From: a virus
Taxonomy: Duplodnaviria; Heunggongvirae; Uroviricota; Caudoviricetes
Length of the DNA: 35,929 nucleotides
Reading direction: 5' to 3' (one strand)
Virus record (IMG/VR): IMGVR_UViG_3300011591_000012
Coordinates: 1 to 35,929 of that record
Each line of letters opens with the position of its first letter. Position 1 is the stretch's first letter. A program made the translations under genes and the position numbers. The notes beneath the pieces are model-generated. The model searched no databases and had not been told where the DNA came from. It was given only the letters and a program-made list of their open reading frames with translations. Shown in pieces: positions 1 to 35,929 of the stretch.

Positions 1-939
1 ATGCAAAATGTTATTGGTAATTTATTCATTATCATCACCACAGCTATAAGCGTTGCCAGCCTTTTCTTGGGGTTATTTGCTTATAATAAAAAAATGAAAA
101 CAAAAGCAATACAAAAAATAGAACTCCTCATACCTAAAAAAAACAGAATAACCAAGTTTTCCGAGCAATGGGTAAGCGCTTTTTTCCTGGCATTCGGTAA
201 TCATGCATTCTCAAAAAGGCAATTAATTACCATACCGTTTTTATTGATTTTATATTCCAGTATCTTATTTGTAGTTTGGTATCTCTGGGTGCTGACTTTT
301 AGAAATCCTGAGCACATCATTCCTCAACATCTGCCATTGACCATTAAAGTTGCATTACATGACTTTATTCATTTTGGCTTTTGGTACTCTTTACTGCTTG
401 ATGTGATGTCAATTTATCTTATCAGAGCTTACATTAACGCAGGTCTATCGAAAGGGTTTTCGTCTGTAAAATCGATCGTTTATTTTTCTTCAATTGTTCT
501 GGGCGTTATGCTCTCATTTACACTTATCGTCACCCATCTTAAAAATGCTTCGATTGAGGACCTCTATATCCAGCAAGGCCTGTATTTTGAAGACAGACCT
601 GTAATGACATGGAACCCGCTGGAAGTGATACGGTCTTCACTGGATTTCATCGATAACGAAACCATGATTATCTTTACCTCAAAAGGGGCAATATCTAACT
701 ACTTCATTCCGCAGGCTATCATGTTTTACCTTTCCATGTTTACGCAATTGACGCTGCTTATTGTTTTCATCAGCTATATGATCACAAAAATACTGCATAA
801 CATTCGAACAGTTGCCATCTGGACAGTCAAGTATTCTGGAACGGCTACGATGAATGCCATTGGTTTCATTCTTATCGCCGGTATTATTCTACTTGCTTTA
901 ATATATTTGTGTTTGTATGTCATATCGCTAATGGTTTAA
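1..939 (+). CDS. Hypothetical multi-pass membrane protein, low-GC accessory gene upstream of yegQ
   Basis: 312-aa ORF starting at the window edge; strongly hydrophobic segments throughout (e.g. LFIIITTAISVASLFLGLF, LILYSSILFVVWYLWVL); AT-rich unlike neighbouring yegQ. No family recognised. Confidence 0.4.
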   Translation: MQNVIGNLFIIITTAISVASLFLGLFAYNKKMKTKAIQKIELLIPKKNRITKFSEQWVSAFFLAFGNHAFSKRQLITIPFLLILYSSILFVVWYLWVLTFRNPEHIIPQHLPLTIKVALHDFIHFGFWYSLLLDVMSIYLIRAYINAGLSKGFSSVKSIVYFSSIVLGVMLSFTLIVTHLKNASIEDLYIQQGLYFEDRPVMTWNPLEVIRSSLDFIDNETMIIFTSKGAISNYFIPQAIMFYLSMFTQLTLLIVFISYMITKILHNIRTVAIWTVKYSGTATMNAIGFILIAGIILLALIYLCLYVISLMV

Positions 940-1090: not shown

Positions 1091-2452
1091 ATGTTTAAAC
1101 CGGAACTCCTTTCCCCGGCGGGAACGCTGCAAAATATGCGTTACGCTTTCGCCTATGGTGCCGACGCCGTTTACGCGGGCCAGCCGCGCTACTCGCTGCG
1201 CGTGCGTAACAACGAATTCAACCACGAGAATCTTCAGCTCGGCATCAATGAAGCGCATGCCCTGGGCAAAAAATTCTACGTGGTGGTGAACATCGCGCCG
1301 CACAACGCCAAGCTGAAAACGTTCATTCGCGACCTGAAGCCGGTCGTGGAGATGGGGCCGGACGCGCTGATCATGTCGGACCCGGGTTTAATCATGCTGG
1401 TTCGGGAGAACTTCCCGGAGATGGACATTCACCTCTCGGTGCAGGCTAACGCCGTCAACTGGGCAACGGTGAAATTCTGGAAACAGATGGGGCTGACCCG
1501 CGTCATTCTGTCCCGCGAGCTGTCCCTCGAAGAGATCGAAGAGATCCGCACCCAGGTGCCGGATATGGAGATCGAAATCTTCGTTCACGGCGCGCTGTGC
1601 ATGGCCTACTCCGGCCGCTGCCTGCTCTCTGGCTACATCAACAAGCGTGACCCGAACCAGGGCACCTGCACCAACGCCTGCCGCTGGGAATATAACGTTC
1701 AGGAAGGCAAAGAAGATGACATCGGCAATATCGTGCACAAACACGAGCCGATCCCGGTCACCAACGTTGAGCCAACGCTGGGTATCGGCGCGCCTACCGA
1801 CAGCGTGTTTATGATCGAAGAAGCCAAACGTCCGGGCGAATACATGACCGCCTTCGAAGACGAGCATGGCACCTACATCATGAACTCCAAAGATCTGCGC
1901 GCCATCGCACACGTCGAGCGTTTAACCCAGATGGGCGTACACTCCCTGAAAATCGAAGGCCGCACCAAGTCTTACTACTACTGCGCCCGTACCGCACAGG
2001 TGTATCGCAAAGCCATCGACGATGCCGCCGCCGGTAAACCGTTCGACACTAGCCTGCTGGAAACGCTGGAAGGTCTGGCGCATCGCGGCTATACCGAAGG
2101 TTTCCTGCGTCGTCACACCCACGACGACTACCAGAACTACGAGCATGGCTACTCGATTTCCGAACGCCAGCAGTTTGTAGGCGACTTCACCGGCGAACGT
2201 AAAGGTCCGCTGGCCGCCGTCGCCGTAAAAAACAAATTCACTAAAGGCGACAGCCTGGAGCTGATGACGCCTCAGGGCAACATGAACTTCCGCCTGGAGC
2301 ACCTGGAAAACAAAAAAGGTGAGGCGATAGAGGTCGCTCCTGGCGACGGCCATGTGGTCTGGCTGCCGGTTCCTGAAGAGGTAGAGCTGGAGTTTGCACT
2401 GCTGATGCGTAATTTTGAAGGTGAAAATACCCGAAATCCACACGGCAAATAG
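1091..2452 (+). CDS. yegQ: Peptidase U32 family protein YegQ (TrhP, tRNA hydroxylation)
   Basis: 453-aa ORF; translation (MFKPELLSPAGTLQNMRYAFAYGADAVYAGQPRYSLR...) is recognised as E. coli YegQ; high-GC core-genome codon usage. Confidence 0.9.
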   Translation: MFKPELLSPAGTLQNMRYAFAYGADAVYAGQPRYSLRVRNNEFNHENLQLGINEAHALGKKFYVVVNIAPHNAKLKTFIRDLKPVVEMGPDALIMSDPGLIMLVRENFPEMDIHLSVQANAVNWATVKFWKQMGLTRVILSRELSLEEIEEIRTQVPDMEIEIFVHGALCMAYSGRCLLSGYINKRDPNQGTCTNACRWEYNVQEGKEDDIGNIVHKHEPIPVTNVEPTLGIGAPTDSVFMIEEAKRPGEYMTAFEDEHGTYIMNSKDLRAIAHVERLTQMGVHSLKIEGRTKSYYYCARTAQVYRKAIDDAAAGKPFDTSLLETLEGLAHRGYTEGFLRRHTHDDYQNYEHGYSISERQQFVGDFTGERKGPLAAVAVKNKFTKGDSLELMTPQGNMNFRLEHLENKKGEAIEVAPGDGHVVWLPVPEEVELEFALLMRNFEGENTRNPHGK

Positions 2453-2487
2453 TCAATCAACGGGATTTTTTCACGCTGGGATAATTC

Positions 2488-2530
2488 TTAGAATCGGATC
2501 ACATACCGCTTCGTTCAATACGGGTATTAT
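2488..2530 (+). promoter_or_regulatory. Putative cyaR promoter: CRP-like half-site TCACA (2499-2503) centred about -41 and -10 hexamer TATTAT (2525-2530)
   Basis: TATTAT lies 7 nt upstream of the inferred CyaR 5' end; TCACA half-site position fits a class II CRP promoter. CRP dependence of CyaR is established knowledge; the site itself is only a partial match. Confidence 0.4.
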
Positions 2531-2536
2531 CCCCCC

Positions 2537-2622
2537 GCTGAAAAACATAACCCATAAATGCTAGCTGTACCAGGAACCACCTCCTTAGCCTGCGTAATCT
2601 CCCTTACACGGGCTTATTTTTT
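2537..2622 (+). ncRNA. cyaR: CyaR (RyeE) small regulatory RNA
   Basis: Sequence GCTGAAAAACATAACCCATAAATGCTAGCTGTACCAGGAACCACCTCCTTAGCC...CCCTTACACGGGCTTATTTTTT recognised as CyaR, including the anti-SD-like CCTCCTTA segment and the terminator hairpin with U-tail. Confidence 0.8.
2596..2622. other. P2-type attachment core (attR junction), overlapping the 3' end of cyaR
   Basis: Plus strand reads AATCTCCCTTACACGGGCTTATTTTTT, the reverse complement of the 27-bp P2 att core as I recall it (AAAAAATAAGCCCGTGTAAGGGAGATT); it is immediately followed by ogr and the rest of the prophage. Confidence 0.6.
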
Positions 2623-2692
2623 ACGTACAACAAATTGAAATAAAAGGATTTATTTCTGGTCACGTCCACACATTGACCACATCGACAAAAAA

Positions 2693-2710
2693 GCCCCTCG
2701 ACTGAGGGGC
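2693..2710. terminator. Bidirectional rho-independent terminator hairpin between the att core and ogr
   Basis: Perfect 7-bp stem GCCCCTC/GAGGGGC with 4-nt loop, flanked by A6 upstream and TTTCTGTTTG downstream; on the minus strand it follows the ogr stop (2724) with a T-run. Confidence 0.6.
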
Positions 2711-2723
2711 TTTCTGTTTGTAA

Positions 2724-2942
2724 TTACATCCACATAATTTGCTGCCCTGACGGCAACGGGTGTGGCCTTACGGCGTGGACTTCTCCCGGCTTCACGATGT
2801 ATCGCTGTACCGACTCATAAGTGATGAACGTGGCGCTGCAATTCACGTTCTGACACTGGTGATAACGCTCTTTTGTCGTGTCAGTGATATAGCGGCTTGT
2901 ACGCGCATGTGCGGCATGCTGGCATAAAGGACAATGAAACAT
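2724..2942 (-). CDS. ogr: Late transcription activator Ogr (C4 zinc-finger)
   Basis: 72-aa product MFHCPLCQHAAHARTSRYITDTTKERYHQCQNVNCSATF... taken from the internal Met of the 93-aa ORF 2724..3005; CxxC...CxxxxC zinc-finger pattern. Confidence 0.9.
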   Translation of the reverse strand: MFHCPLCQHAAHARTSRYITDTTKERYHQCQNVNCSATFITYESVQRYIVKPGEVHAVRPHPLPSGQQIMWM

Positions 2943-3023
2943 CGCGAGCACCTCTTCCGGTTTTATTGATGGTGCCATTTTAGTTAATTTATCCTTATAA
3001 AACAAACAGATAAAATAAAAACA

Positions 3024-4187
3024 TCACTCATCATCTTCTGTTTCGTACTCCACATCAGAAAGCCTGACCTCAAGCTCTAAGGACGTCGTGAAGCCGCTAT
3101 TATTCAGAAAATGTGTCACCTTAGTGATTGTCCAGTCCTGCTCGTCTATGACGCGCTTAAAGCCTGACACTTTAACCGGTGTTTCCGTGTAAATATCTGC
3201 CCGACCGGTAGCCAGGCTGATGGAGAACTCCGCCACACCCCGTTGCAGTTTATCCCACTTCGCCTGAGCGGCGCGCATGGCCTGCGCTTTCGTGGCATAT
3301 ACCGTAGTCAGGGCAAAAACGTTGTCAGCCTCACCGGCCATGTATTCACCTTCGCGCGCTTCCGGTACTTTTGGCGCTTTCTTCTGCGTGACCGGTTTCG
3401 CTTTCGGGTGCTCCAGTGCGCGCAGGTGTTTTTCTTTCTTTTTGCGTTTCAGTTTTACCTTCTGCTTTTGCGGCTTCGGGTCTTTGGTGTGTAACCACTT
3501 TGCCGTTACGCCGGTGTAAGCTCCACGGTCAGCAATCGCAAAATGATGACGGTCGCCGTCGCTGCGGGTGATGGTAATCTGCGGGATTTTTTTACCGCTG
3601 GCCGTCACCCCCTGCCCCGCTTTGAGAAACAACAGTTTTCCCATTTTTACCGACACCTCACCGCCGTTGCGTTCTGCAAGACGGGTCAGGAATTTCGCAT
3701 CAGACTCCTGCGACTGGTCGATGTGCGGGATTTTAATTCCGGCCAGTGACGGAGCGACACTGGCTTCCAGCCTGTTACGGGAGGCTATCGCTTCAACAAT
3801 CGCACCGAGTGTGGTGTCATGCCAGGAGCCTTCCCGGCGGGAATTGAGCGTCCCGCGAAAATCTGCACTCCGGGCGCGGATGGTGACCACATCCGGCGCG
3901 CCCCGGTGTTCAACCTCATCAACGGTGAATTTCCCTTTGCATACCAGGGCAAAACCTTTCCAGCCGATATACACCGTCAGGACAGCGCCACGAACCGGTA
4001 GCCCGACCTGCCCGTCGGCATCGTTCAGTTCAATATCAAGCTGGTCAGCCTCAAAGCCCCGGTTATCCGTCAGGGTCATGCTCATCAGACGGTCGCTGAT
4101 ATTGCCGGTAATATCCCTGCTGTCGAGCATCAGCATGTAATCCGGCGTCAGCGTACTGCCTGCATCAAATGTCAGTGCATCCAGCAT
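3024..4187 (-). CDS. D: Tail protein D (late control gene D)
   Basis: 387-aa ORF, position and sequence consistent with P2 gpD; follows U and precedes ogr as in P2. Confidence 0.9.
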   Translation of the reverse strand: MLDALTFDAGSTLTPDYMLMLDSRDITGNISDRLMSMTLTDNRGFEADQLDIELNDADGQVGLPVRGAVLTVYIGWKGFALVCKGKFTVDEVEHRGAPDVVTIRARSADFRGTLNSRREGSWHDTTLGAIVEAIASRNRLEASVAPSLAGIKIPHIDQSQESDAKFLTRLAERNGGEVSVKMGKLLFLKAGQGVTASGKKIPQITITRSDGDRHHFAIADRGAYTGVTAKWLHTKDPKPQKQKVKLKRKKKEKHLRALEHPKAKPVTQKKAPKVPEAREGEYMAGEADNVFALTTVYATKAQAMRAAQAKWDKLQRGVAEFSISLATGRADIYTETPVKVSGFKRVIDEQDWTITKVTHFLNNSGFTTSLELEVRLSDVEYETEDDE

Positions 4188-9449: not shown

Positions 9450-9698
9450 AGCCTTGATTTGCACTCTCTCAATTTCCAACTGACAAAATACGTAGCCAAA
9501 ACGCTATCAAATCTGACAGCCTGCTTTGAGCGAGAAACAGACATGGATGGCATACAGTGAAAGTAGCCGCACAATGAGCATCACTGCAATTCTGAATTCA
9601 AGCTCTAATACTATTGAGACCGTATCATACAGTCACTCGCAAAAATTACTTTACCTGAGTGAAAAAATTGATTCCAAGCAAAATGAAAACTTGTAATT

Positions 9699-9720
9699 CA
9701 TTATTACATGCATAATAATG
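9699..9720. promoter_or_regulatory. 22-bp palindrome (8-bp perfect arms) about 105 bp upstream of the OLD-like gene; candidate operator
   Basis: CATTATTA-catgca-TAATAATG read directly from the sequence; AT-rich context so chance is possible. Confidence 0.2.
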
Positions 9721-9825
9721 AATAAAAACTTGAGCTATATAAACCAAAGTTGTTCCGAATAGTCCGTTGAGACATCACTCGAATTATAGGAATACAAGGT
9801 TTTATTTTTATAAGGAATCGCTCCC

Positions 9826-12090
9826 ATGGGTTTGCAAAGCATAAGAATAAAAAACTTACTATCATTTAATGATGTAATAATAAATTCCCTAGAGGATGTA
9901 AATTGCATTGTAGGGATGAATAATGTTGGCAAATCCAATCTTATGAAAATATTGAAATATTTTTACGACAAACTTGACGACATAAAAGTAATACCTCCTG
10001 ATTTTCATTCTAGTTATACTCCTTCAGGGTCAATAACATTGACTTATGATGTAACAAGAATAAAGAGAATTGTAATGAACCCTAATAACAATGGTCGCTT
10101 TCACAAGCATATTTATAACACTTTATTTAAGCCACAATCATTCATCCGAAAGCCGCAGAAATTCTGTCTTCCTTTCATATCTCCTTTGGGTTTCCAAAGA
10201 AAAAGCACTTATAGCATTACACTCACAATTTCTAAAGATGACTCCGTAACTTGGTCAATTAGCACACCAAATGCCCGGCATCTAATTAAAACTCTATTTC
10301 CTTTTTTCCATATTGAAACCAGACACATTGACTTATACGACTGGAATAGCATATGGAAAATGCTCAGCAGTATAAATTCCTTTAATTTCTCTGAAATAAA
10401 AAAAGAAGAACTCCTTGAGTTTTTGAATGAGAAAATATCAACTAAGCGGGGTAGTTACAAGAAGTATATAGAAAGAGTTGAAAATGTAATCCATACTAAA
10501 CCTTACACCTATAAAGATAAAGTCGTTAATTATCTAAAAATAGTTTTAGATGGCGATATCTTCATAAATAAAGGTGAAGAACTACATGTTCAGTCGGATG
10601 GCACGAACTCTCACAAATATCTTGAAATTATACTTAGCCTATTAATTTCATTAACAAGAACAGAATTTATCAATCCAATTATATATATTGATGAACCTGA
10701 AATTGGGCTACATCCAAAACTTAGCGAGAACTTTATTGAGAACATAAGCCTGACATATAAAAAGTATGATAAAACCCATGAGGAAATTGAGCCTGGAAAA
10801 TATTCAACACCATATCCAACTCTTATATTTAGCACTCATTCTCCGAGTTTACTAAAACTCACGCTAAAATCTTTCTTACATAAACAGCAGGTTTTGCATT
10901 TTTCAAAAGAACGTGACAACTCGACCAAAATTTCAAAATTAAACTCTAAATATAATGACATTAGATTTATAAATATGCTTAGCGATAATGAGGCCCGTCT
11001 ATTCTTTAGTGAATACATTCTATTTGTAGAGGGCGCCACAGAAGTTGAATTGTTTAGAAATTATAATCTGCAAAAGCTGTTTCCAGTACTTAAAAGGTTA
11101 GATGTGTATGATTGCGATGAAGTAATGTTGAAAAATATAAACCCCAGCTACTCAAATGCAGCCATCCCATTTCTAGTAGTAAAGGATATTGATCAGATTG
11201 CCGTTGTTGACTTCGAACATGAACAATTTAAATTTAATTCGAAAGGGAAATCAATTATTAATAAAATCATTAAGAGAGATAAACTACACTATTTTTCGAC
11301 ATACCAAAAACCTTTTCTTAACGCAGCAAAATTTCTTTTAAGCCAAGATGAAAGGAAAGTAACATTCAGTGAAAATGGCCTAAAATTCAGACACTTCAGT
11401 ATAGGCAGAGTTATAAGCGCAGTTAATTTTTTATCCTCTAAAGATAATGTTTATTATACTTCTACAACGATAGAAGGCTCATTGATCAATGAATTCTCTT
11501 TAGAGACATTCTCTTTATGGATCATTGACATAGTAATGAGAAGCTTTAATGTAAATAATAAAAACCCTGTAAAAATGATTAATGCTCTGCTGCAAAAATA
11601 CGATATTAAAACCCAATCAAAACAACTTTTTCCCAAAATACTTTCAAAATGTGAAACAAATCATAACCTACCATTGCGACACATGAGATTATTGAAAATC
11701 ATTAAAATTAGATATGCTAAAGAAATAATTGATGAGTTTAAAAAAACCATCCCCGACGTAAAAGACCAAGTTGCTATCTTGCGCCTTATTTTTAGTGGCA
11801 AAACAGAAACTCTTGTAAGTATAGAAATGCATTATAAAATTGATCAAAAACCGATACGGCAAGATATATTGGATTATATCAAAGCATTAAAGTCAGAAAA
11901 TTTCTCTTTTATGAGTTCTTACATAGGAAAGACTTCTGGATGGGTTACAAGCTTCATTGATTTTAGCCTTAATCATTATTCAGCCCTAGATAAAGAAAAT
12001 GTCGAAAAAAAATTCCGCTTGGCTTTTCCTGAAATTTCGCATATCATCGATCATGCTTCTTCTTCGATAGAAGCTGGAGGGCTCAAATGA
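9826..12090 (+). CDS. OLD-family nuclease: N-terminal ABC-type ATPase plus C-terminal Toprim domain
   Basis: 754 aa, low GC. Walker A GMNNVGKSN near the N-terminus; Walker B/D-loop IYIDEPEIGLHP; Toprim-like ILFVEGATEVE and VVKDIDQ (DxD) in the C-terminal half. Confidence 0.7.
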   Translation: MGLQSIRIKNLLSFNDVIINSLEDVNCIVGMNNVGKSNLMKILKYFYDKLDDIKVIPPDFHSSYTPSGSITLTYDVTRIKRIVMNPNNNGRFHKHIYNTLFKPQSFIRKPQKFCLPFISPLGFQRKSTYSITLTISKDDSVTWSISTPNARHLIKTLFPFFHIETRHIDLYDWNSIWKMLSSINSFNFSEIKKEELLEFLNEKISTKRGSYKKYIERVENVIHTKPYTYKDKVVNYLKIVLDGDIFINKGEELHVQSDGTNSHKYLEIILSLLISLTRTEFINPIIYIDEPEIGLHPKLSENFIENISLTYKKYDKTHEEIEPGKYSTPYPTLIFSTHSPSLLKLTLKSFLHKQQVLHFSKERDNSTKISKLNSKYNDIRFINMLSDNEARLFFSEYILFVEGATEVELFRNYNLQKLFPVLKRLDVYDCDEVMLKNINPSYSNAAIPFLVVKDIDQIAVVDFEHEQFKFNSKGKSIINKIIKRDKLHYFSTYQKPFLNAAKFLLSQDERKVTFSENGLKFRHFSIGRVISAVNFLSSKDNVYYTSTTIEGSLINEFSLETFSLWIIDIVMRSFNVNNKNPVKMINALLQKYDIKTQSKQLFPKILSKCETNHNLPLRHMRLLKIIKIRYAKEIIDEFKKTIPDVKDQVAILRLIFSGKTETLVSIEMHYKIDQKPIRQDILDYIKALKSENFSFMSSYIGKTSGWVTSFIDFSLNHYSALDKENVEKKFRLAFPEISHIIDHASSSIEAGGLK

Positions 12091-12201
12091 GCTGACGCAT
12101 GCCGTCACTTGCTCCAGCAAACACTAGCTCGGATTGTCTTGCGTCCGCTAAGCCGCTTTAAGCCTCACGGGGTGTAAAGATGTTATTGGTATCGAAGAGG
12201 A
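12058..12201 (+). ncRNA. Candidate structured ncRNA (retron msr/msd-like) between the OLD-like and RT genes
   Basis: 12-nt inverted repeat with one mismatch: TCTTCTTCGATA (12058-12069) versus TATCGAAGAGGA (12190-12201). Enclosed region is GC-rich against AT-rich flanks and has local stems GCTGGAG(12073-12079)/CTCCAGC(12111-12117) and TGACG(12093-12097)/CGTCA(12103-12107). The second repeat sits just upstream of the RT start. Confidence 0.25.
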
Positions 12202-12210
12202 AGCTTTTAC

Positions 12211-13308
12211 ATGAAACATAAAATTAATAAAATTAACAATGATTTTTATAAAAATTTTTATCTAAGAGAAACATTCTCCGATGATATTATTATGACTCAC
12301 GGAGTCCCTGAGATTTCCAATGACGATTATAAAAGCATTTCATTAAAGAATAGATTATGTTTCACTATAAGAAAAAGCTCCCCGCATAAAAAAATACAAG
12401 AAAGACTTATAAAAAATTTCCTAGTAAAAGTTCCTCTTAGCTCACCTGCAATTGCCTATCGTAAAAAATTAAACTATTTGAATTTTCTAGAACCTCATAT
12501 CCATGGTGAGAACTTTTGTCGAATTGACTTATGTAATTTTTTTCATAACATAAACTATAACTTTGCAAGGGAGTGTTTCAAATCCTACTTTGAAGATGAA
12601 TATCTGGTAAATAAAAAAATCAAAGTTATTGATGCATTTTTAAATAGTTTATCTATTGAGATTGTAGTCAACAATAAAAAGAAAAAAATATTTCCAATGG
12701 GATTCGCCACATCACCTTTCATATCCAATATAATTTTCAGAAAGTTAGATATTTTAATTAAAAGTTTGTGTGACAAAAGAAGCATCATTTACACTCGTTA
12801 TGCTGATGATATGCTTTTTTCGAGCTCCGGGAAAGACAAACTTCTTGGAAGTGAACATTTTGACAACGAGATATCAACTATTGTCAATACGGCAGGACTG
12901 TCCCTCAACAAACATAAAAAAATATTTAAGAAAGGCATAATCTCACTAAACGGCTATGTAATAGAAAATAAAAATGGAGGGGGAGAGAGAGGGAGTATAA
13001 GAATATCTAATGGAAAAATGTATTTAATACGGAAAGCACTAGATAAATTTAAAAAGGGATATTCTAAAGAGCATATTTGCAAAAAAGTATTTTCTGTTAA
13101 ATCACCAACTGTCAAGTATAATAACAATGCAGATCAGTTTGTAACGGATTTTTATAATTCACAATTCTCTAATAAGTTAGCTGGTTATCGTTCATATTTA
13201 ATATCATTAGTAAAATTTAATGATAAATTCAGATGTTTTCACGAAAACGAAATCACCAAATACTCAGTGATTATTGATGAAATTTCTAATGCACTGCTAA
13301 AACCCTAG
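12211..13308 (+). CDS. Reverse transcriptase, small retron/Abi-like (fingers-palm only)
   Basis: 365 aa, low GC. RT motifs read in the translation: motif A-like FCRIDLCNFFHNI, motif B-like FPMGFATSPFISNIIF, motif C YTRYADDMLFS (YADD box), motif D-like GLSLNKHK. GAGGA RBS 8 nt upstream. Confidence 0.75.
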   Translation: MKHKINKINNDFYKNFYLRETFSDDIIMTHGVPEISNDDYKSISLKNRLCFTIRKSSPHKKIQERLIKNFLVKVPLSSPAIAYRKKLNYLNFLEPHIHGENFCRIDLCNFFHNINYNFARECFKSYFEDEYLVNKKIKVIDAFLNSLSIEIVVNNKKKKIFPMGFATSPFISNIIFRKLDILIKSLCDKRSIIYTRYADDMLFSSSGKDKLLGSEHFDNEISTIVNTAGLSLNKHKKIFKKGIISLNGYVIENKNGGGERGSIRISNGKMYLIRKALDKFKKGYSKEHICKKVFSVKSPTVKYNNNADQFVTDFYNSQFSNKLAGYRSYLISLVKFNDKFRCFHENEITKYSVIIDEISNALLKP

Positions 13309-13730
13309 CCTTAGAAAGTTAATGTTTTGGCCCTAAAGCAAGGGCCTTAATAGTAAAAATAGTTACCAGCATAAGTATTCCTTCAACTAATCACACAAAT
13401 TAACGTTAGCAACGTTCCCTTTTTACACCGTCTGAGCACTAAGCTGTCGGTCATTCTGGTCTACCATACTATTATACGTAACATCCAAGAGTGTTCCTGC
13501 AAACGGTCGTAGAAAATGCGGGCTTCGCCATTTTCTGGCCGACGCCGGTCTCGTCGAGTTCTTCTGACTGTTCAAGTGCAAATGCGCCTGTAGGTATCCC
13601 TACAAAAGAAACCATCAACTTTTAGATAGTATCTGGCACTCCAACTCCCGCTGTTGACTCGGAGCGGACTGTCAGATTAGGCTTTACTCTGTACCATAGA
13701 TACGTTAGCTCACTCCAGAGATCATACAAC

Positions 13731-17933: not shown

Positions 17934-18565
17934 AGAGGACTCCCGGTTGTGCCGCCGCTGTCGCCGGGGTGTTTATGGGTATGCAGTACCTTACCGTTTG
18001 ATGAGAGTTCACCGCCGGTGTGTTCAATGTTGCCGCGCATCGTCCCGCCCTTCTGCACTTCCAGCGTGCCGGTAATCAGCCTGTTGGTGCAGACCACCTC
18101 CGGTGTGTCCAGGGTGACGCGGGTTGATGCTTTCACCGTGACCACCGGCACCGTGGCAGTAACAGAATCAGAAGCCGTCACGCTGGCCGTTTTAATTCCG
18201 CTTACCGTGAGTGCACTGGTTTCGGGTTCATACTCAATCACCGCCCCGTCAGGGAAACGGATATGCAGGGCATCCGCCGACGCAGACGGCGCGGGGTTAT
18301 CGCCGGAATAAATCCCCGGCAGAACAAACGCCGTGTCAAGTTCACCGCCCACGGCCAGAATCAGCACCTGCTCCCCCACGGAAGGTGCCCACCATGTGCG
18401 CGAACGCCCGGCACGACAGGTCAGCCACTGAAGCCAGTCGGTGCACATGCCGCCGGTCTGCACACGGCAGCGACCGGCGTTAAGGTCGGTTTCGACGACA
18501 AGGCCGGTGCGAATCATGTTGCGCAGTGCGCGCGCGAGTTCCTGAATATTTGCGAGAGTGTTCAT
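17930..18565 (-). CDS. V: Baseplate spike/assembly protein V
   Basis: 211-aa ORF; synteny; first gene of the V-W-J-I-H-G block. Confidence 0.85.
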   Translation of the reverse strand: MNTLANIQELARALRNMIRTGLVVETDLNAGRCRVQTGGMCTDWLQWLTCRAGRSRTWWAPSVGEQVLILAVGGELDTAFVLPGIYSGDNPAPSASADALHIRFPDGAVIEYEPETSALTVSGIKTASVTASDSVTATVPVVTVKASTRVTLDTPEVVCTNRLITGTLEVQKGGTMRGNIEHTGGELSSNGKVLHTHKHPGDSGGTTGSPL

Positions 18566-18631
18566 AACGGGAAGGATGCCGCCGGGTCATACCGGCGGCA
18601 ATGTGACGATGAGGTGTCGGGAATGGCACAA

Positions 18632-23977: not shown

Positions 23978-24832
23978 TCAGCAGTTCGTCATCAGGGCGT
24001 CACCGCCACCGCCGGTGGCTTTACTGCGGCGCTGCTGGGTCAGACTTTCGGTGTGGTCGAGACTGTTTTTCAGGCGGGTGAATGCCTGACTGGTTTCATC
24101 CGCCCTGTCAGTCACATCCTGCTTAAGTGCGGAAAAGGCGGTTTCCATCTCAGCAAGGCGCTGCTCAGTGGCGCTCAGTTTTTCCTGCACATGCTCAGCG
24201 ACAGCGGTCACCGCTTCATGCACGTCATTCAGACGGGCGTCATCGCTGGCCTGTTTGCGGCCAAAAATGGATTTCACCTTTTCGGTCAGGGCTGTGAACA
24301 CGGTTTCAGGCAGGTCTTCAAATTCCAGCTCAACAGGCGTTGCCACTGAAATCAGGTTTTCAGGGCTTAATTTGAAGCGGTTCAGGGGGTTGTGTTTTGC
24401 CGTGCGGCAGAATTCCAGGTATTCCGTACCGAGGCTTGCCGGGTCATCGGTGACGGCCAGCCCCACCAGATAACATTTGCCGGTGTTGGCAAAGTTCGGC
24501 TGAATTTCCATTGAGGTGTAGACCTTCTGCGCGGCCTTGTTCATCGCGATAAGGTCATCGGTCGGGGTGATTTTCGCAAACAGCGCCCATTTGCCTTTCA
24601 GCGCCGAATCGTCATCAATCTTTTCGGCCTTCAGTTCGACCACATCGCCATAACGTTTAAAAATGCCGTCAGGCAGGATGCCGCGCAGATGTTCCAGGTT
24701 AATGCGGCAACCATAGACTCGCGGGTCAAAGGTTTCGGCCATTTCCTGAATATCCTGCGCACTGATGACACGCCCGTCACAGGTGTCACCCTCAACGCCG
24801 ATACGAAAGAATTTTGAGACTTTTTTTGCCAT
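23978..24832 (-). CDS. O: Capsid scaffolding protein O
   Basis: 284-aa product from MAKKVSKFFRIGVEGDTCDGRV... (internal ATG at 24830-24832 with AGGA RBS) within ORF 23978..24898. Confidence 0.85.
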   Translation of the reverse strand: MAKKVSKFFRIGVEGDTCDGRVISAQDIQEMAETFDPRVYGCRINLEHLRGILPDGIFKRYGDVVELKAEKIDDDSALKGKWALFAKITPTDDLIAMNKAAQKVYTSMEIQPNFANTGKCYLVGLAVTDDPASLGTEYLEFCRTAKHNPLNRFKLSPENLISVATPVELEFEDLPETVFTALTEKVKSIFGRKQASDDARLNDVHEAVTAVAEHVQEKLSATEQRLAEMETAFSALKQDVTDRADETSQAFTRLKNSLDHTESLTQQRRSKATGGGGDALMTNC

Positions 24833-28000: not shown

Positions 28001-28128
28001 CGCCCGCTTCATGGGTCGGTTTTAATGCAGGTGCACGAACACACTGGAGACGCACCAGTACTGGCGGTGGTCACGTAGATCCGCCCCTTAAAAGCCATGC
28101 AGAATAATGCAACTATTGCGGGCGTCGG

Positions 28129-28548
28129 CTAATCATCTTCTAAAGGTGGAATTTTGATGCCACTAATTAGCAGTACTTTCCGGTATGCCTCAAAAATAAT
28201 GTTGTGTGTTTTTTGTAAATCATCGAGCATTTTTTGCCGTCCTGCTGGGGTATCTTTGGCAAAATTATGAGCGCGAAAAAAATCATGTGCCAAGTAGTTT
28301 CTGGCTTTAAGAGCATCTGACACATACTCCAGTGTATCAGCATCCTCCACCATCCTAGACTTCAGTGCGTAATTCAATTTACCCAGCGTGTATTTATCCA
28401 TTTCTAAAAACTGTTTTTTCAGCGACTGTATATCTTTCCCCTGACTCATATCATACTCAGTGATAACATTTATCAACTCAGTCTCCAGTAATTGAGCTGC
28501 TTCCGAAGCATAACCAAATTTCCAATAAACCGTATCAAGCGTCACCAT
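28129..28548 (-). CDS. Small alpha-helical protein with HEPN-like Rx4HxF motif (candidate RNase or partner protein)
   Basis: 139 aa, low GC; motif ALKARNYLAHDFF resembles the HEPN Rx4-6H signature; GGGGA RBS; 91 bp downstream of the HNH gene on the same strand. Confidence 0.45.
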   Translation of the reverse strand: MVTLDTVYWKFGYASEAAQLLETELINVITEYDMSQGKDIQSLKKQFLEMDKYTLGKLNYALKSRMVEDADTLEYVSDALKARNYLAHDFFRAHNFAKDTPAGRQKMLDDLQKTHNIIFEAYRKVLLISGIKIPPLEDD

Positions 28549-28639
28549 ATAATCTATTCCCCATATAACAAATCACACCCCAAATTAAATCATAATACAT
28601 AATTAAATCTAACGCCTCGCTGCACCAGAAGAAGTCATG

Positions 28640-29971
28640 TTAACGCTTATCATGGAACTTTTTCCATTTTGTCATCAACTTTCCAGCATCAAGTTCTACA
28701 TGATGCGGTTGTAGAGTTTTACCCTCAAACATAGTTTTGTGGATACAATTAATAGAAAAATGAACCGTTAAGTCCTCTGGATTAATCCCCATTAATCCTT
28801 TATCAAACATTCGGTGTAAACTTACTTCAAGTAACAGGCCATTAGATGTGTTATTATTTGCTGATTCTGTTATTGCTTCAATATGTGCGGCTTCCAATAT
28901 CCCCTCTGGCAATGGATAGCCAGTAATAGCACATCTGCCATTGAAGTTATCCCAAACACGGCGTTTGAAATCAGCTTGATCTCCAGCATGACGGACTTTG
29001 TGAGTAACCTCGACTGTTCGTCCTGTAGCACAGGTATCGTTTGCGGCCTTGAAAGGATTAGTTAGACTTTCATTAATGGCTATATCCGTTCCATCCATGA
29101 TAAGAGATATTTCATTATTGGGTTCGGATGATGTTAATGGACTTATGTACTGATTGCTTAAAAAAGTCATACTAGATTCTTCATCAGTCGCGAGTTTCCA
29201 CGCTTCTGATTGTGTCATTGTTAGCAATGCCGTTTGATAAACTTGCTTATTAAAATAACGTTTATCTTTCTTGTCACTCCCCATATTAATAGTACTAGAT
29301 TTAATCGGAAGTGTTTTATCACCAATTAGTAGATCACGTATTTCTACAGTCTCTTCTAAGGTATCAATAGGAGCTACTATAGGGTTAGTCAACGGGTTAT
29401 CTACATGATCTACGTGGTTGTGTCGTAAATGCCACTCTATAGCACTATCTTTTATATGTATCTCGCAGACAGGGCATACAATAAGCCCCATAGATGTTAC
29501 AGGTAGCTTTTTGCCACCGATTAAGCGTAATGTATTTGCATTCTGGTTATGTACTTTCTTTTGGTTCTGTGTCAGTACACTACGCTTAGCCTCTAAACGG
29601 GTCGGAATCTTAGCAAGATTAAGCGATTTACGGCTCTCTTGTCTCTCAAGATCATAGATCCGAATCCCTGCTCCAGTTTTGATTTTTGTCCACATAGAGA
29701 TAGAACTAAGGAATTTATGTCCATGTACTTTTTCATAATCAGCATAAGCTTGCAAAGTAGCAGTGGAACTATCTAATCCTTTTTTACGGAGTGCTGTATA
29801 TTGCTGAAAAAGATTAATAGCATGAGCTGTAATAGAGCGCCTATTCTCTATAATTTGCGTTTTTTTTGCTGCTTGTTCTGCTTGCAATGCTTTTTGTTCA
29901 GGGGTAAGCGACTTCTTTTTGGCTTTCTTGGTTCTTTTCTTACTCAAAGTTTTCTTACTGTTATTGTTCAT
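28640..29971 (-). CDS. HNH-family nuclease with lysine-rich N-terminus and C2H2-like zinc-binding motif
   Basis: 443 aa, low GC. C-terminal segment CAITGYPLPEGILEAAHIEAI...NGLLLEVSLHRMFDKGLMGINPEDLTVHFS matches the HNH_2-type pattern. Central CPVCEIHIKDSAIEWHLRHNH; N-terminal KKTLSKKRTKKAKKK basic stretch. Confidence 0.6.
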   Translation of the reverse strand: MNNNSKKTLSKKRTKKAKKKSLTPEQKALQAEQAAKKTQIIENRRSITAHAINLFQQYTALRKKGLDSSTATLQAYADYEKVHGHKFLSSISMWTKIKTGAGIRIYDLERQESRKSLNLAKIPTRLEAKRSVLTQNQKKVHNQNANTLRLIGGKKLPVTSMGLIVCPVCEIHIKDSAIEWHLRHNHVDHVDNPLTNPIVAPIDTLEETVEIRDLLIGDKTLPIKSSTINMGSDKKDKRYFNKQVYQTALLTMTQSEAWKLATDEESSMTFLSNQYISPLTSSEPNNEISLIMDGTDIAINESLTNPFKAANDTCATGRTVEVTHKVRHAGDQADFKRRVWDNFNGRCAITGYPLPEGILEAAHIEAITESANNNTSNGLLLEVSLHRMFDKGLMGINPEDLTVHFSINCIHKTMFEGKTLQPHHVELDAGKLMTKWKKFHDKR

Positions 29972-30080
29972 TTTGCAAGCCTTTAATCTAATTCATGGAA
30001 AGGGGCATTCACTTGCCCTGTATCCAGTAAACTGACATAACACGATATAAGCAAGCTCCGTAATTCTTTCATGTTAATCA

Positions 30081-32357
30081 TCAATGGTCCATTGTGAATC
30101 CCGGCCACTCATCAGCGACCGGATACGTGAATTTTTTACCGTCGTAATTTACAGTCGCGCCACGCGCCAGCGCCTCAAGCTCCCATCGCTGCGGCCTGAT
30201 ACCGTTCTGAGCAAGGTCAACGCGGATACGGGTGATTTGCATTCGTTCCGACCTGTTCAGTCTGGCCGATGGCGCTATTTCATGCGGTTTTAACGGGCTT
30301 CCGTTTCTTTGCTGACGGTTTGGTCTTCTCAGGCCGTGTTTTAATGCGCTTCTGAGCGCCCTCACGACCTCCGGGTCATTCCATTCGATAACACCGTCAT
30401 CAACCAGATTAAGCACGGCTGCGGCGTGCTCAGAAGGTGTGGGAGCCGGTAACGAAGTATCACCACCGGTGAGCTTTCCACAGTTATTGACAGGACTCCG
30501 AGGCGCGGCGATGCCGCTTTTTAAAGTCAAAGGCTCAACGACCGGAACTTTCGGCACAATGCGCCAGTCCGTCGTTCTGGTGATATGAATATGACGCGCG
30601 CCGAGATGCGGCGCGTAAATGCCGACCACTCTCTCGACTTCTTCCTCATACTCGTTAACGTCATCCGACGGGCTACGGGCGACCCTGACAGTCTGACAAT
30701 CGCGCGGGACATTTGCCCCACCCTGCGCGCTGATATACAACGCAAAATCACCACTGTCTGCGGCGGCGCGTGCAGCCTCGACGCGTTCGTCAAACTCATC
30801 AGCAATGCTGACGCCGCGAGGCAATTTGCGTAGTTCACGGTAAGCCCCCATTGTCGGCAGGCCAACCGTTTTAAATTGCGGAATGCGCCACGTTGACGCC
30901 CATGCGGTAACAGCCGCGGCAGTATCTTTCAGCGGCCTGCCAGTATCGTTATCGAGCTGACCATCCAGTGCATAGCCGTCGATGTTTTTTGAGATGTATT
31001 TCGCGATATATCCCGCAGCACCGCCCCGGTTAAGGTGTTTTGCCTGAAAACGGTTTCGCGCAGCGCCTCTTTCGTCACCATCCTCTTTGAGCGCATAGCG
31101 ACGCATGATTTCGATAATCTGGTTACGCTGGCGTGGATTACAAAAAAGCATCATATGCCAGTGCGGCGTTCCGTCGTGGTGTGGCTCAACGACACGCAAA
31201 CCGTAGACCTGTAAATCATTATCCTTGAATGCCGTCCGCATCAGGCTCCAGATACGGCAGAGATAACGCTGCGCATCCTTTGGATTAAATGCCTCATCGT
31301 TCCAGCCGTGATTAAGCTGAACGGTTTTACTTTCGCCTTTTCCGACCTGACGTGTCGGGTGATACTTTGACGGCGCGGTCAGCGTGATAAACATCCCCAC
31401 ATCACCCTCTGCGGCGGCGTAACGCTCAATACCGGCAATGGTGTTCATCAGCTCCATCCGGCGAATTTCAGGATTAGAAATACTGCCCATCACCTTACTG
31501 ATAAGGTCGATGCGCTCGCCGGTTTCCCTGTTTTCAAGGTCACACGATTTAAGAAATTCCAGATTTGCCTGGCGGCGTGCACGTACATCACGAATGGCAT
31601 GTTTACTGGCATAAGGAGAACGGTCTTTATTCACCTCCCCGACAGCAATCAGTAACGCCTCATGCCAGCGCATACGCTGGCCTTTAAGCTGATGAGTCCA
31701 CCACTCATCGTTAAACAGACGGGCAATGGCAGAATATGCCTGCCTCGTGGTTATCTGTCCTTTACGGTATTTTTTCCAGTAGAGCGGGGAAATATTGAAA
31801 GCACGTGCAGCGCCAGCAACATGACCATACAGATGATCCTGCGCCTCATCCGTAAACAGCGATTCTTTTTCGCCATGCGCATCCACCCAGGCATCGCAGA
31901 GTTCCTCATACATCATGAAAAGCTGCGATGAGATACGGGCGGCAAACTTTTTCAGCTCCTTGTCATTCATCCCCGGCAGACGCGCATAATGGTCACGCTC
32001 TGCCAAAAACAGCAACGACGCGTCGGTGTTCATTTCATGGCGCTGATTCACACGCTCAATGCGCGGCCATAAACGACGCTGAAAAGTGGATGTGAGGAAA
32101 TAAAACCCGTGCACCGGGCTTTTATTGCGCCGGATGTAGTCATAGCGTGAAGTAAACAGCGAGCGCAAAAAGTAAGGCAGGCGGTTAATCGTGGATAAAA
32201 CACCTTGCACCTGACGCATCTCATCACGTGTAAGGGGTCTTTCGCGCCCGACAGCCTCGCGTGGCGCGTTCCATGCATAAGCACCGGCAAACGTCTTACC
32301 GGTGCCTGCGGCAAATGCTGACGGAGGGACAAAACGCCCGGAGGCTTTAACGGCCAT
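30081..32357 (-). CDS. A: Replication initiation protein A (rolling-circle HUH endonuclease)
   Basis: HUH motif HWH in VEPHHDGTPHWHMMLF and tyrosine pair in GYIAKYISKNIDGY. Start uncertain: ATG 32357 (AGAGG RBS), or TTG codons at 32366 or 32399. Confidence 0.85.
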   Translation of the reverse strand: MAVKASGRFVPPSAFAAGTGKTFAGAYAWNAPREAVGRERPLTRDEMRQVQGVLSTINRLPYFLRSLFTSRYDYIRRNKSPVHGFYFLTSTFQRRLWPRIERVNQRHEMNTDASLLFLAERDHYARLPGMNDKELKKFAARISSQLFMMYEELCDAWVDAHGEKESLFTDEAQDHLYGHVAGAARAFNISPLYWKKYRKGQITTRQAYSAIARLFNDEWWTHQLKGQRMRWHEALLIAVGEVNKDRSPYASKHAIRDVRARRQANLEFLKSCDLENRETGERIDLISKVMGSISNPEIRRMELMNTIAGIERYAAAEGDVGMFITLTAPSKYHPTRQVGKGESKTVQLNHGWNDEAFNPKDAQRYLCRIWSLMRTAFKDNDLQVYGLRVVEPHHDGTPHWHMMLFCNPRQRNQIIEIMRRYALKEDGDERGAARNRFQAKHLNRGGAAGYIAKYISKNIDGYALDGQLDNDTGRPLKDTAAAVTAWASTWRIPQFKTVGLPTMGAYRELRKLPRGVSIADEFDERVEAARAAADSGDFALYISAQGGANVPRDCQTVRVARSPSDDVNEYEEEVERVVGIYAPHLGARHIHITRTTDWRIVPKVPVVEPLTLKSGIAAPRSPVNNCGKLTGGDTSLPAPTPSEHAAAVLNLVDDGVIEWNDPEVVRALRSALKHGLRRPNRQQRNGSPLKPHEIAPSARLNRSERMQITRIRVDLAQNGIRPQRWELEALARGATVNYDGKKFTYPVADEWPGFTMDH

Positions 32358-34915: not shown

Positions 34916-35929
34916 ATGGCAATCAAAAAACTCGATGATGGTCGATATGAAGTGGACATCCGCCCTACTGGACGTAATGGAAAACGCATCCGTAGGAAGT
35001 TTGATAAGAAAAGCGAAGCTGTCGCTTTCGAGAAATACACGTTGTACAACCACCACAATAAAGAATGGCTATCAAAACCAACAGACAAGCGACGTCTGTC
35101 GGAGCTGACACAGATCTGGTGGGATTTAAAGGGTAAACACGAAGAGCATGGGAAATCTAATCTTGGAAAAATTGAAATCTTCACAAAAATAACGAATGAC
35201 CCATGCGCATTTCAAATTACGAAATCGCTTATCAGCCAGTACTGCGCCACCCGAAGAAGCCAGGGTATTAAACCTTCGAGTATCAATCGTGATTTGACAT
35301 GTATTAGCGGCATGTTTACAGCCCTGATTGAAGCGGAGTTATTCTTTGGTGAGCACCCTATCAGAGGGACAAAAAGGCTTAAGGAGGAAAAACCAGACAC
35401 AGGCTATCTCACGCAGGAAGAAATTGCCTTACTGCTTGCGGCTCTTGACGGCGACAACAAAAAGATTGCGATTCTTTGCCTGAGTACTGGAGCACGTTGG
35501 GGAGAAGCAGCTCGTTTGAAAGCAGAAAATATCATCCATAACCGCGTCACGTTTGTTAAAACGAAAACAAACAAACCACGCACCGTCCCGATCTCAGAGG
35601 CTGTTGCCAAAATGATCGCGGATAACAAACGAGGTTTTTTATTCCCTGATGCTGATTACCCTCGCTTCAGACGAACAATGAAAGCAATAAAACCGGATTT
35701 GCCAATGGGGCAAGCCACACATGCACTAAGGCACAGCTTTGCCACTCATTTCATGATTAATGGAGGAAGTATTATCACGCTACAACGGATACTAGGTCAC
35801 ACACGGATTGAGCAAACTATGGTTTACGCTCATTTTGCGCCAGAGTACCTTCAGGACGCCATTTCTCTTAATCCGTTAAGAGGTGGTACTGAGGCCGAGA
35901 GTGTCCACACAGTGTCCACAGTAGAGTAA
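34916..35929 (+). CDS. int: Tyrosine integrase
   Basis: 337-aa ORF with the tyrosine-recombinase C-terminal signature (HALRHSFATHF...LGHTRIEQTMVYAHF); the stop codon is the last 3 nt of the window. Confidence 0.9.
   Translation: MAIKKLDDGRYEVDIRPTGRNGKRIRRKFDKKSEAVAFEKYTLYNHHNKEWLSKPTDKRRLSELTQIWWDLKGKHEEHGKSNLGKIEIFTKITNDPCAFQITKSLISQYCATRRSQGIKPSSINRDLTCISGMFTALIEAELFFGEHPIRGTKRLKEEKPDTGYLTQEEIALLLAALDGDNKKIAILCLSTGARWGEAARLKAENIIHNRVTFVKTKTNKPRTVPISEAVAKMIADNKRGFLFPDADYPRFRRTMKAIKPDLPMGQATHALRHSFATHFMINGGSIITLQRILGHTRIEQTMVYAHFAPEYLQDAISLNPLRGGTEAESVHTVSTVE

Follow-up and report, generated by a model that had tools for sequence, protein, structure and literature searches.

The window, i.e. 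the whole 35,929-nt stretch of DNA analysed here, contains bacterial genes at its left end, then the small RNA gene cyaR, and from the 3′ end of cyaR up to the stop codon of int, with which it ends, a prophage of the P2 type (Table 1). The CyaR/RyeE family (Rfam RF00112) was matched over the full length of the model (1-85 of 85) at 2535-2619 on the + strand, scoring 98.9 bits where the gathering score is 47; this was the sole Rfam match at gathering threshold across the window. Alignment to the annotated cyaR of Escherichia coli K-12 places the start of the gene at 2537, in agreement with the initial annotation of this DNA. Its location downstream of yegQ/trhP is conserved, the Pfam domain Peptidase_U32 being found on a protein identical to the YegQ of the window, and cyaR has a conserved promoter block of its own upstream (AATTCTTAGAA.C.GATCACATAC) that is common to the window and K-12. 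The interval 2470-2536 is presumably the CRP-dependent promoter of cyaR known from published work on this gene. A consensus promoter scan of 2300-3100 gave no match, and a terminator scan flagged only the hairpin next to ogr and missed the CyaR terminator.

Table 1. Features at the cyaR junction and of the adjoining prophage, in window coordinates
Feature	Position	Strand	Basis
yegQ/trhP, peptidase U32 family, upstream of cyaR	1091-2452	+	453-aa ORF; E. coli matches annotated yegQ/trhP
cyaR promoter region (presumed), host DNA without phage change	2470-2536	+	identical to isogenic empty site L130
cyaR sRNA gene, host/phage chimera	2537-2622	+	Rfam RF00112 and alignment to K-12 annotation
CyaR terminator hairpin	left arm 2587-2597, loop 2598-2603, right arm 2604-2614	+	RNA fold; C2593·A2608 unpaired
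27-bp att core, P-arm junction (attR, lambda naming)	2596-2622		identical to P2 attP core
Core position 13, phage-derived A, host allele G	2608	+	P2 attP A, empty sites G
IHF-binding region, P arm (predicted)	2621-2654		coordinates transferred from P2 24324-24357
Int arm-type binding sites, P arm (predicted)	2658-2685		transferred from P2 24293-24320; sequence identical
Rho-independent terminator of ogr and F operon	2690-2713	-	identical to P2 feature 24265-24288
ogr, late-gene activator, 72 aa	2724-2942	-	translation, P2 annotation
int, P2 tyrosine integrase	34916-35929	+	336/337 identical to P2 Int
P2-type (Peduovirus) prophage	2596-35929, then 106 nt beyond window end to second core copy		collinear BLAST

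The 27-mer AATCTCCCTTACACGGGCTTATTTTTT at 2596-2622 is present in a single copy in the window, with 0 copies expected by chance even if up to three mismatches are allowed, and it is base for base (27/27) the segment annotated as 'attP' and 'Int attP core' in phage P2 (NC_001895, 24356-24382), so that its original designation as the P2 core was correct. In BLAST comparisons, the homology to P2 and to some 75 further genomes of Peduovirus starts exactly at 2596; when aligned to P2, the window is unrelated to the left of this position, and on the right side there is 1 difference in 108 nt (2623-2730). According to the lambda convention and the P/P′ labels of the P2 record, the window contains attR (P-O-B′), and attL is the junction on the int side. 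With respect to the CyaR terminator, the core includes A2596 and A2597, which form the top two pairs of the left arm, as well as the loop, the whole right arm and the U tail at 2617-2622. The statement that core and terminator coincide therefore holds as far as this overlap is concerned, but nine of the 11 bases of the left arm lie outside the core.

To the right of the core follow the predicted IHF-binding region of the P arm, within which there is a palindromic inverted repeat (GAAATAAA-agga-TTTATTTC, 2637-2656), the arm-type sites for Int, and a hairpin with a perfect 10-bp stem (2690-2699 and 2704-2713) and a 4-nt loop. The corresponding P2 feature is labelled 'rho-independent terminator for ogr transcript and F operon', a label that names only ogr and the F operon. 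A second, bidirectional hairpin had been placed at 2693-2710 by the initial annotation; the hairpin as such is real, but these coordinates comprise just the G + C centre of the longer stem. On the minus strand the stem has a run of six T (the tail being TTTTTTG if the A/T pairs are included in it), and on the plus strand the tail is only CTGTTTG, after CTTT. The hairpin could also serve as a back-stop for plus-strand transcripts reading through from cyaR. The ogr gene is identical to that of loci L134 and L141, on which the Pfam domain Ogr_Delta was found.

From 2596 to its end the window is collinear with P2 at 95-97.6% identity (BLAST) except for two cargo islands, the gene order being D, U, T, E, FII, FI ... 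cos ... A, B, cox, C, int and the ORF lengths being those of P2. The Int protein carries the Pfam domain Phage_integrase, and from core start to core start the prophage measures 33,413 bp. Both islands lie at known cargo positions and are devoid of P2 homology. The first (9537-13647) replaces fun(Z), and its ORFs at 9826-12090 (+) and 12211-13308 (+) constitute a two-gene type I-B retron in this hotspot (PADLOC ATPase-Toprim_I-B, 1.6e-210; RT_I-B, 2.7e-106); no msr/msd RNA was located in the island, Rfam at gathering threshold yielding CyaR alone. In the second (28030-30091), which replaces old/tin/orf91, PADLOC recognised no system; it contains an ORF on the minus strand for a protein of 443 aa with a C-terminal HNH_2 domain (28640-29971) and another one for a protein of 139 aa without family match (28129-28548). 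The P2 gene orf30 (P2 9439-10224, between S and V) is missing from the prophage, its site corresponding to window positions 18565-18630.

The initial annotation had taken the window for the occupied, intact state of the att locus of E. coli K-12. Yet over yegQ-cyaR the identity to all 5,426 E. coli records matched is 84%, as opposed to 97.2% for the best species representatives, Enterobacter intestinihominis and Enterobacter quasihormaechei from the Enterobacter cloacae complex, and therefore the window does not show the K-12 locus itself in its occupied state. Also, the host gene on the downstream side is yegS directly, without yegR. As judged from these flanking sequences, the prophage resides in an Enterobacter from the cloacae complex and not in E. 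coli, and according to exact-protein look-ups the same host lineage is present both with and without the prophage. An additional ORF of 312 aa at 1-939 (+), between the gene for a BaeR-like response regulator and yegQ, has no Pfam or PADLOC match; it is found in the Enterobacter lineage comprising L119, L124 and L130-L139 and is absent from L115-L118 and L120-L123, in which YegQ is identical.

An isogenic empty site exists in L130 (GCA_000534555.1), with 0 mismatches in the 2,595 nt of the left flank and 1 in 3,000 nt of the right flank; further empty sites are found in L119, L124 and others. The attB of L130 reads GCCTGCGT / AATCTCCCTTACGCGGGCTTATTTTTT / ACCTTTC or, with the core split at its position 13, GCCTGCGT / AATCTCCCTTACGCGGGCTTATTTTTT / ACCTTTCATCC, with yegS next. 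In the window, attR reads GCCTGCGT / AATCTCCCTTACACGGGCTTATTTTTT / ACGTACAAC, whereas attL, located 80 nt beyond int in GCA_030187515.2, reads GACACCCTA / AATCTCCCTTACGCGGGCTTATTTTTT / ACCTTTCATCC, and the attP of P2 has an A at core position 13. The second core copy lies outside the window and was taken from near-identical assemblies instead of the window's own record: attL was read from two overlapping loci on one contig of GCA_030187515.2 which, when stitched, differ from window 2211-35929 at 2 of 33,719 nt. There the core occupies the window-equivalent positions 36009-36035 and agrees with the cyaR-side core at 26 of its 27 positions. Likewise, the int-side junction of L109 has the G, followed by the same ACCTTTC host flank. 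The second core copy that was predicted to lie just beyond int is thus present in GCA_030187515.2 as well as in L109, as a repeat of 26/27 and not 27/27.

Immediately after the core (the equivalent of 2623) there is an A/G polymorphism among the empty Enterobacter sites, as seen by comparing L109 and L130-L138. At this position 28 attL has an A and many empty sites have a G, a difference that would not be explained by a single exchange and that was attributed to polymorphism of the host; the lineage-matched empty sites L130, L133, L135 and L137 have the A. With an A at this position the host matches the attP of P2 for two bases (AC) past the 27-bp core.

Core position 13 lies in the right arm of the CyaR terminator. 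When one genome per species was scanned with the left arm of cyaR as query, 103 Enterobacteriaceae loci were obtained, and with the left arm GCCTGCG the partner base was a G in 103 of 103. The same G is found in all 16 empty sites of the host's and neighbouring lineages. In E. coli, the two arms read GCCTGTG...CACGGGC and form a U-A pair (seen in no fewer than 4,821 of 5,426 E. coli records, with an identity of ≥99%), and it is this E. coli version of the terminator arm that the P2 core matches. Because in the window the host C2593 faces the phage A2608, the stem contains a C·A mismatch, which the Rfam alignment marks as non-canonical ('v'). For the 38-nt terminator segment (hairpin plus U tail) the predicted folding energy is -12.0 kcal/mol in the window, compared to -17.4 kcal/mol for the native Enterobacter and -15.9 kcal/mol for the E. 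coli sequence. In CyaR, the Hfq-binding module is such a hairpin, fully paired, together with the U tail behind it. The chimeric terminator is predicted to form a stem of 6 + 4 bp, followed by UUAUUUUUU, and on these model energies the mismatch would weaken the hairpin by 5.4 kcal/mol. The host has contributed the promoter and the sRNA body, which are identical to those of the empty site, and at least 2608-2622 of the gene comes from the phage. The initial view that integration regenerates an intact sRNA gene is contradicted by the 26/27 agreement of the two core copies, by A2608 in place of the host G and by the C·A mismatch.

Taken together, we are highly confident that the interval 2537-2723 is the attR of a complete P2-type prophage residing in the last 27 bp of an Enterobacter cyaR gene. 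The prophage would have been inserted at the 3′ end of cyaR by Int/IHF site-specific recombination of the Campbell type, involving a heterobivalent tyrosine integrase, a mechanism that we infer from the 99.7% identity to P2 Int and from the conserved binding sites; P2 Int needs IHF and Cox. The incoming attP brings along a copy of the cyaR 3′ end, from the top of the terminator stem through loop and right arm to the U tail. Since attP carries this copy, cyaR keeps its full length after insertion and has a promoter, a seed region and a terminator of its own, and the displaced host 3′ end comes to lie at the other junction, 80 nt beyond int. The core of the phage is the E. coli version, in which the A at position 13 pairs with the E. 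coli-specific U of the left arm, whereas the G of the Enterobacter attB pairs with C. Strand exchange took place left of position 13 (2596-2607) or across it, and consequently the cyaR copy received the phage A2608 and the int-side copy kept the host G. The resulting chimeric CyaR would probably still be made and terminated, and its level may be changed.

As to the origin of the phage, the same phage with 99.988% identity over 17,290 nt (2 differences) sits at cyaR in L147 (GCA_054477985.1), the host of which is of the E. coli type: its flank is 97.3% identical to yegR-yegS-gatR of K-12, and the int-side core has the A. A further copy, L145, is 99.85% identical over 13 kb, with a yegQ/cyaR end that is 100% identical to K-12, and in the closely related copies at the E. 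coli cyaR junctions L143 and L145 the U-A pair is intact. In the E. coli-type hosts of the phage, the terminator stem and both cores are thus perfect. Because a 99.99% identical phage is found at the E. coli cyaR with a perfect stem, the Enterobacter lysogen is, as far as can be judged from these comparisons, a recent acquisition of an E. coli-adapted P2 across the genus boundary.

Chimeric copies of the junction were found in the window, in L126, in L134, in L141 and 19 similar places, in L144 and in the metagenome contig L151. All of them look like the product of one clonal event, and the combination of A in attR and G in attL therefore counts as a single observation. Scans of IMG/VR and of JGI metagenomes for the reciprocal combination (G in attR, A in attL) and for other hosts with the chimera yielded the same clone only (L126, L151); in these scans, L127, L128 and L129 have a GCA-type core in another host. 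In L144 (GCA_000492575.1), a sibling lysogen, IS elements and a cluster of fimbrial usher and chaperone genes cut the prophage off behind gene S, and the same chimeric cyaR junction is retained.

Core position 13 might lie inside the overlap (spacer) of the Int cleavage sites, in which case a heteroduplex would have formed at both junctions and replication would have segregated an A into attR and a G into attL. The two ends of the core, AAT..CCC and GGG..ATT, repeat each other imperfectly in inverted orientation, with 2608 in the 6-nt spacer between them, and an overlap TTACAC at 2604-2609, with the half-sites AATCTCCC and GGGCTTATT, can be proposed by symmetry; either segregant would give unlike alleles at the two junctions, as is seen. 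However, a simple exchange anywhere in 2596-2607 yields the same result, and there is one independent event only. We consider segregation from such a heteroduplex to be a tentative possibility that deserves serious attention, and if it were true, the heterology would now hinder excision. This natural heterology is itself a marker with which the exchange point of P2 Int could readily be mapped.

It is less probable, and in our opinion rather unlikely, that the prophage is locked in or defective and the junction a fossil instead of a working att site. Such a reading could draw on the one-base difference between attL and attR, on the IS elements and fimbrial genes that take the place of the head-gene side in the sibling L144, and on the wide distribution of the clone, which suggests stable carriage; against it, all P2 genes have their P2 lengths, cos, int, cox, C, the arm sites and the IHF site are intact, and the 99.99% identity to the E. 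coli copy implies that the transfer was very recent. That cyaR had been regenerated perfectly and A2608 is a point mutation acquired afterwards, or a sequencing error, is very improbable: although a single base is concerned and all carriers seem to be clonal, this base is the exact P2 allele, it is found in at least five independent assemblies, one of them a metagenome, and the other core copy has the reciprocal host G, as a single exchange predicts. Finally, an E. coli host with an intact occupied K-12 locus, in which integration restores an unchanged cyaR from a core equal to attB, deserves hardly any credence, for even though the window core is the P2 core, which in E. coli equals attB at 27/27 and makes a perfect stem, this is refuted by the flank identity (84% to every E. 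coli record matched, 97% to Enterobacter), by yegS following without yegR, and by core copies that differ at position 13 and leave a C·A mismatch.

Given insertion by Int into an Enterobacter cyaR as the preferred reading, one may speculate about its consequences. An E. coli-coevolved P2 (U-A) might have entered Enterobacter (C-G) and overwritten one base of a conserved, Hfq-dependent sRNA, the weakened terminator thereby becoming fixed in a widespread clone, but as a whole this scenario is doubtful. If the mismatch lowered the termination or stability of CyaR, or permitted CRP-driven read-through antisense to ogr, this would amount to lysogenic conversion via an sRNA allele. Independently of such effects, the locus is a clean natural case of a phage that crossed genera with an imperfectly matched att core.

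Use of the cyaR 3′ end extends beyond P2 itself. In Citrobacter and Enterobacter, other prophages or prophage remnants of the P2 family sit at cyaR (8 species representatives and L136, which belongs to the window's own host lineage) and have the same P-arm architecture directly after the U tail; unlike the window, they carry the native G (or GCA) core and have perfect stems, and their phage bodies are, where alignable, about 70-75% identical to the prophage of the window. From this comparison, the 3′ end of cyaR is a family-wide att site. A GenBank entry of 2,362 nt, 'Phage TP' (AY639599.1), is 82% identical to the host yegQ-cyaR, the match stopping exactly at 2595, and looks like the host-side junction fragment of a P2-type prophage that was deposited as phage DNA.

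Unoccupied cyaR sites of E. coli (e.g., L106, 7121-7180; H47) contain a fossil P arm to the right of the core (CTGGTCACCGTCTTCCATTGACCACATCGA), with a local alignment score of 38 to the P arm of the window against a maximum of 22 in shuffles. Local alignment to the same P arm revealed no fossil P arm in the empty Enterobacter flank. The E. coli attB flank hence seems, by its sequence, to descend from an ancient P2-type junction. The one-base heterology in Enterobacter hints that the E. coli-specific U-A pair could itself go back to an A that a phage had imposed, with a compensatory change later on.

The locI site of P2 in E. coli we take to be this same site, with attB at the 3′ end of cyaR/ryeE, on the basis of the P2 GenBank annotation and established knowledge. 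In the RefSeq annotation of K-12, cyaR is followed by the cryptic prophage PR-X, which starts 18 nt before the cyaR end, with ogrK and the D fragment yegZ, and then by yegR and yegS. This agrees with the earlier remark that K-12 carries only ogrK and a D fragment at this site, as PR-X consists of ogrK plus yegZ and begins inside cyaR. At the right end of PR-X (L125, 2504-2530) only the right part of the core, CTACACGGGCTTATTTTTT, is left, fused to the D fragment, and therefore the deletion of the K-12 prophage ended inside the core. A contiguous unoccupied cyaR site is present in roughly 78% of complete E. coli genomes (4,218/5,424), an approximate figure that depends on how BLAST pieces are joined.

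Integration of P2 at cyaR is already documented, and the arrangement is the textbook one of Campbell-type insertion. In a table of the paper on the E. coli W genome, 'cyaR RNA' is given among the insertion sites of the P2 type; it is occupied by Wphi2 in W, by ogr-D′ in K-12 and by P2*B in B, and in Crooks it is unoccupied (PMC3032704). Beyond this table, our search of the literature on cyaR in connection with attB, integration site or P2 found nothing. A survey of P2-like integrases from 2011 places P2-type sites 'between other genes' without naming cyaR (PMC3448106), and a 2026 survey of P2 defence hotspots leaves the Citrobacter and Enterobacter elements undelimited, att-site information being lacking (PMC13586616). 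The present case adds the att sites, exact to the nucleotide, of a P2-type Enterobacter prophage, together with a heterology of one base by which the CyaR terminator becomes chimeric and, by prediction, weaker.

Compared with P2 at locI and with PR-X, the window has the same 27-bp core, the same IHF and arm-type sites and ogr terminator, the same order yegQ-cyaR-core-ogr-D and an Int that agrees at 336 of 337 residues. It differs in that the host is an Enterobacter, the attB of which matches the core at 26/27, leaving the C·A mismatch in the rebuilt terminator, and in that the host flank on the right is yegS, with yegR absent, and lacks the fossil P arm of the 'empty' E. coli sites. Integration at the 3′ ends of RNA genes is common to many elements, such as phage 186 in tRNA-Ile, Fels-2 and SopEPhi in ssrA, or P2-like elements at rybB and sdsR. 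As in other tyrosine-recombinase elements at the 3′ ends of tRNA, tmRNA and sRNA genes, attP supplies the 3′ part of a structured RNA including its terminator (PMC3448106, PMC3032704); in contrast to these, the target in the window is an Hfq-dependent sRNA and the duplication comprises only 27 nt. That the gene is regenerated thus holds only so far as the phage copy matches the new host, and the cost in this case is one unpaired base.
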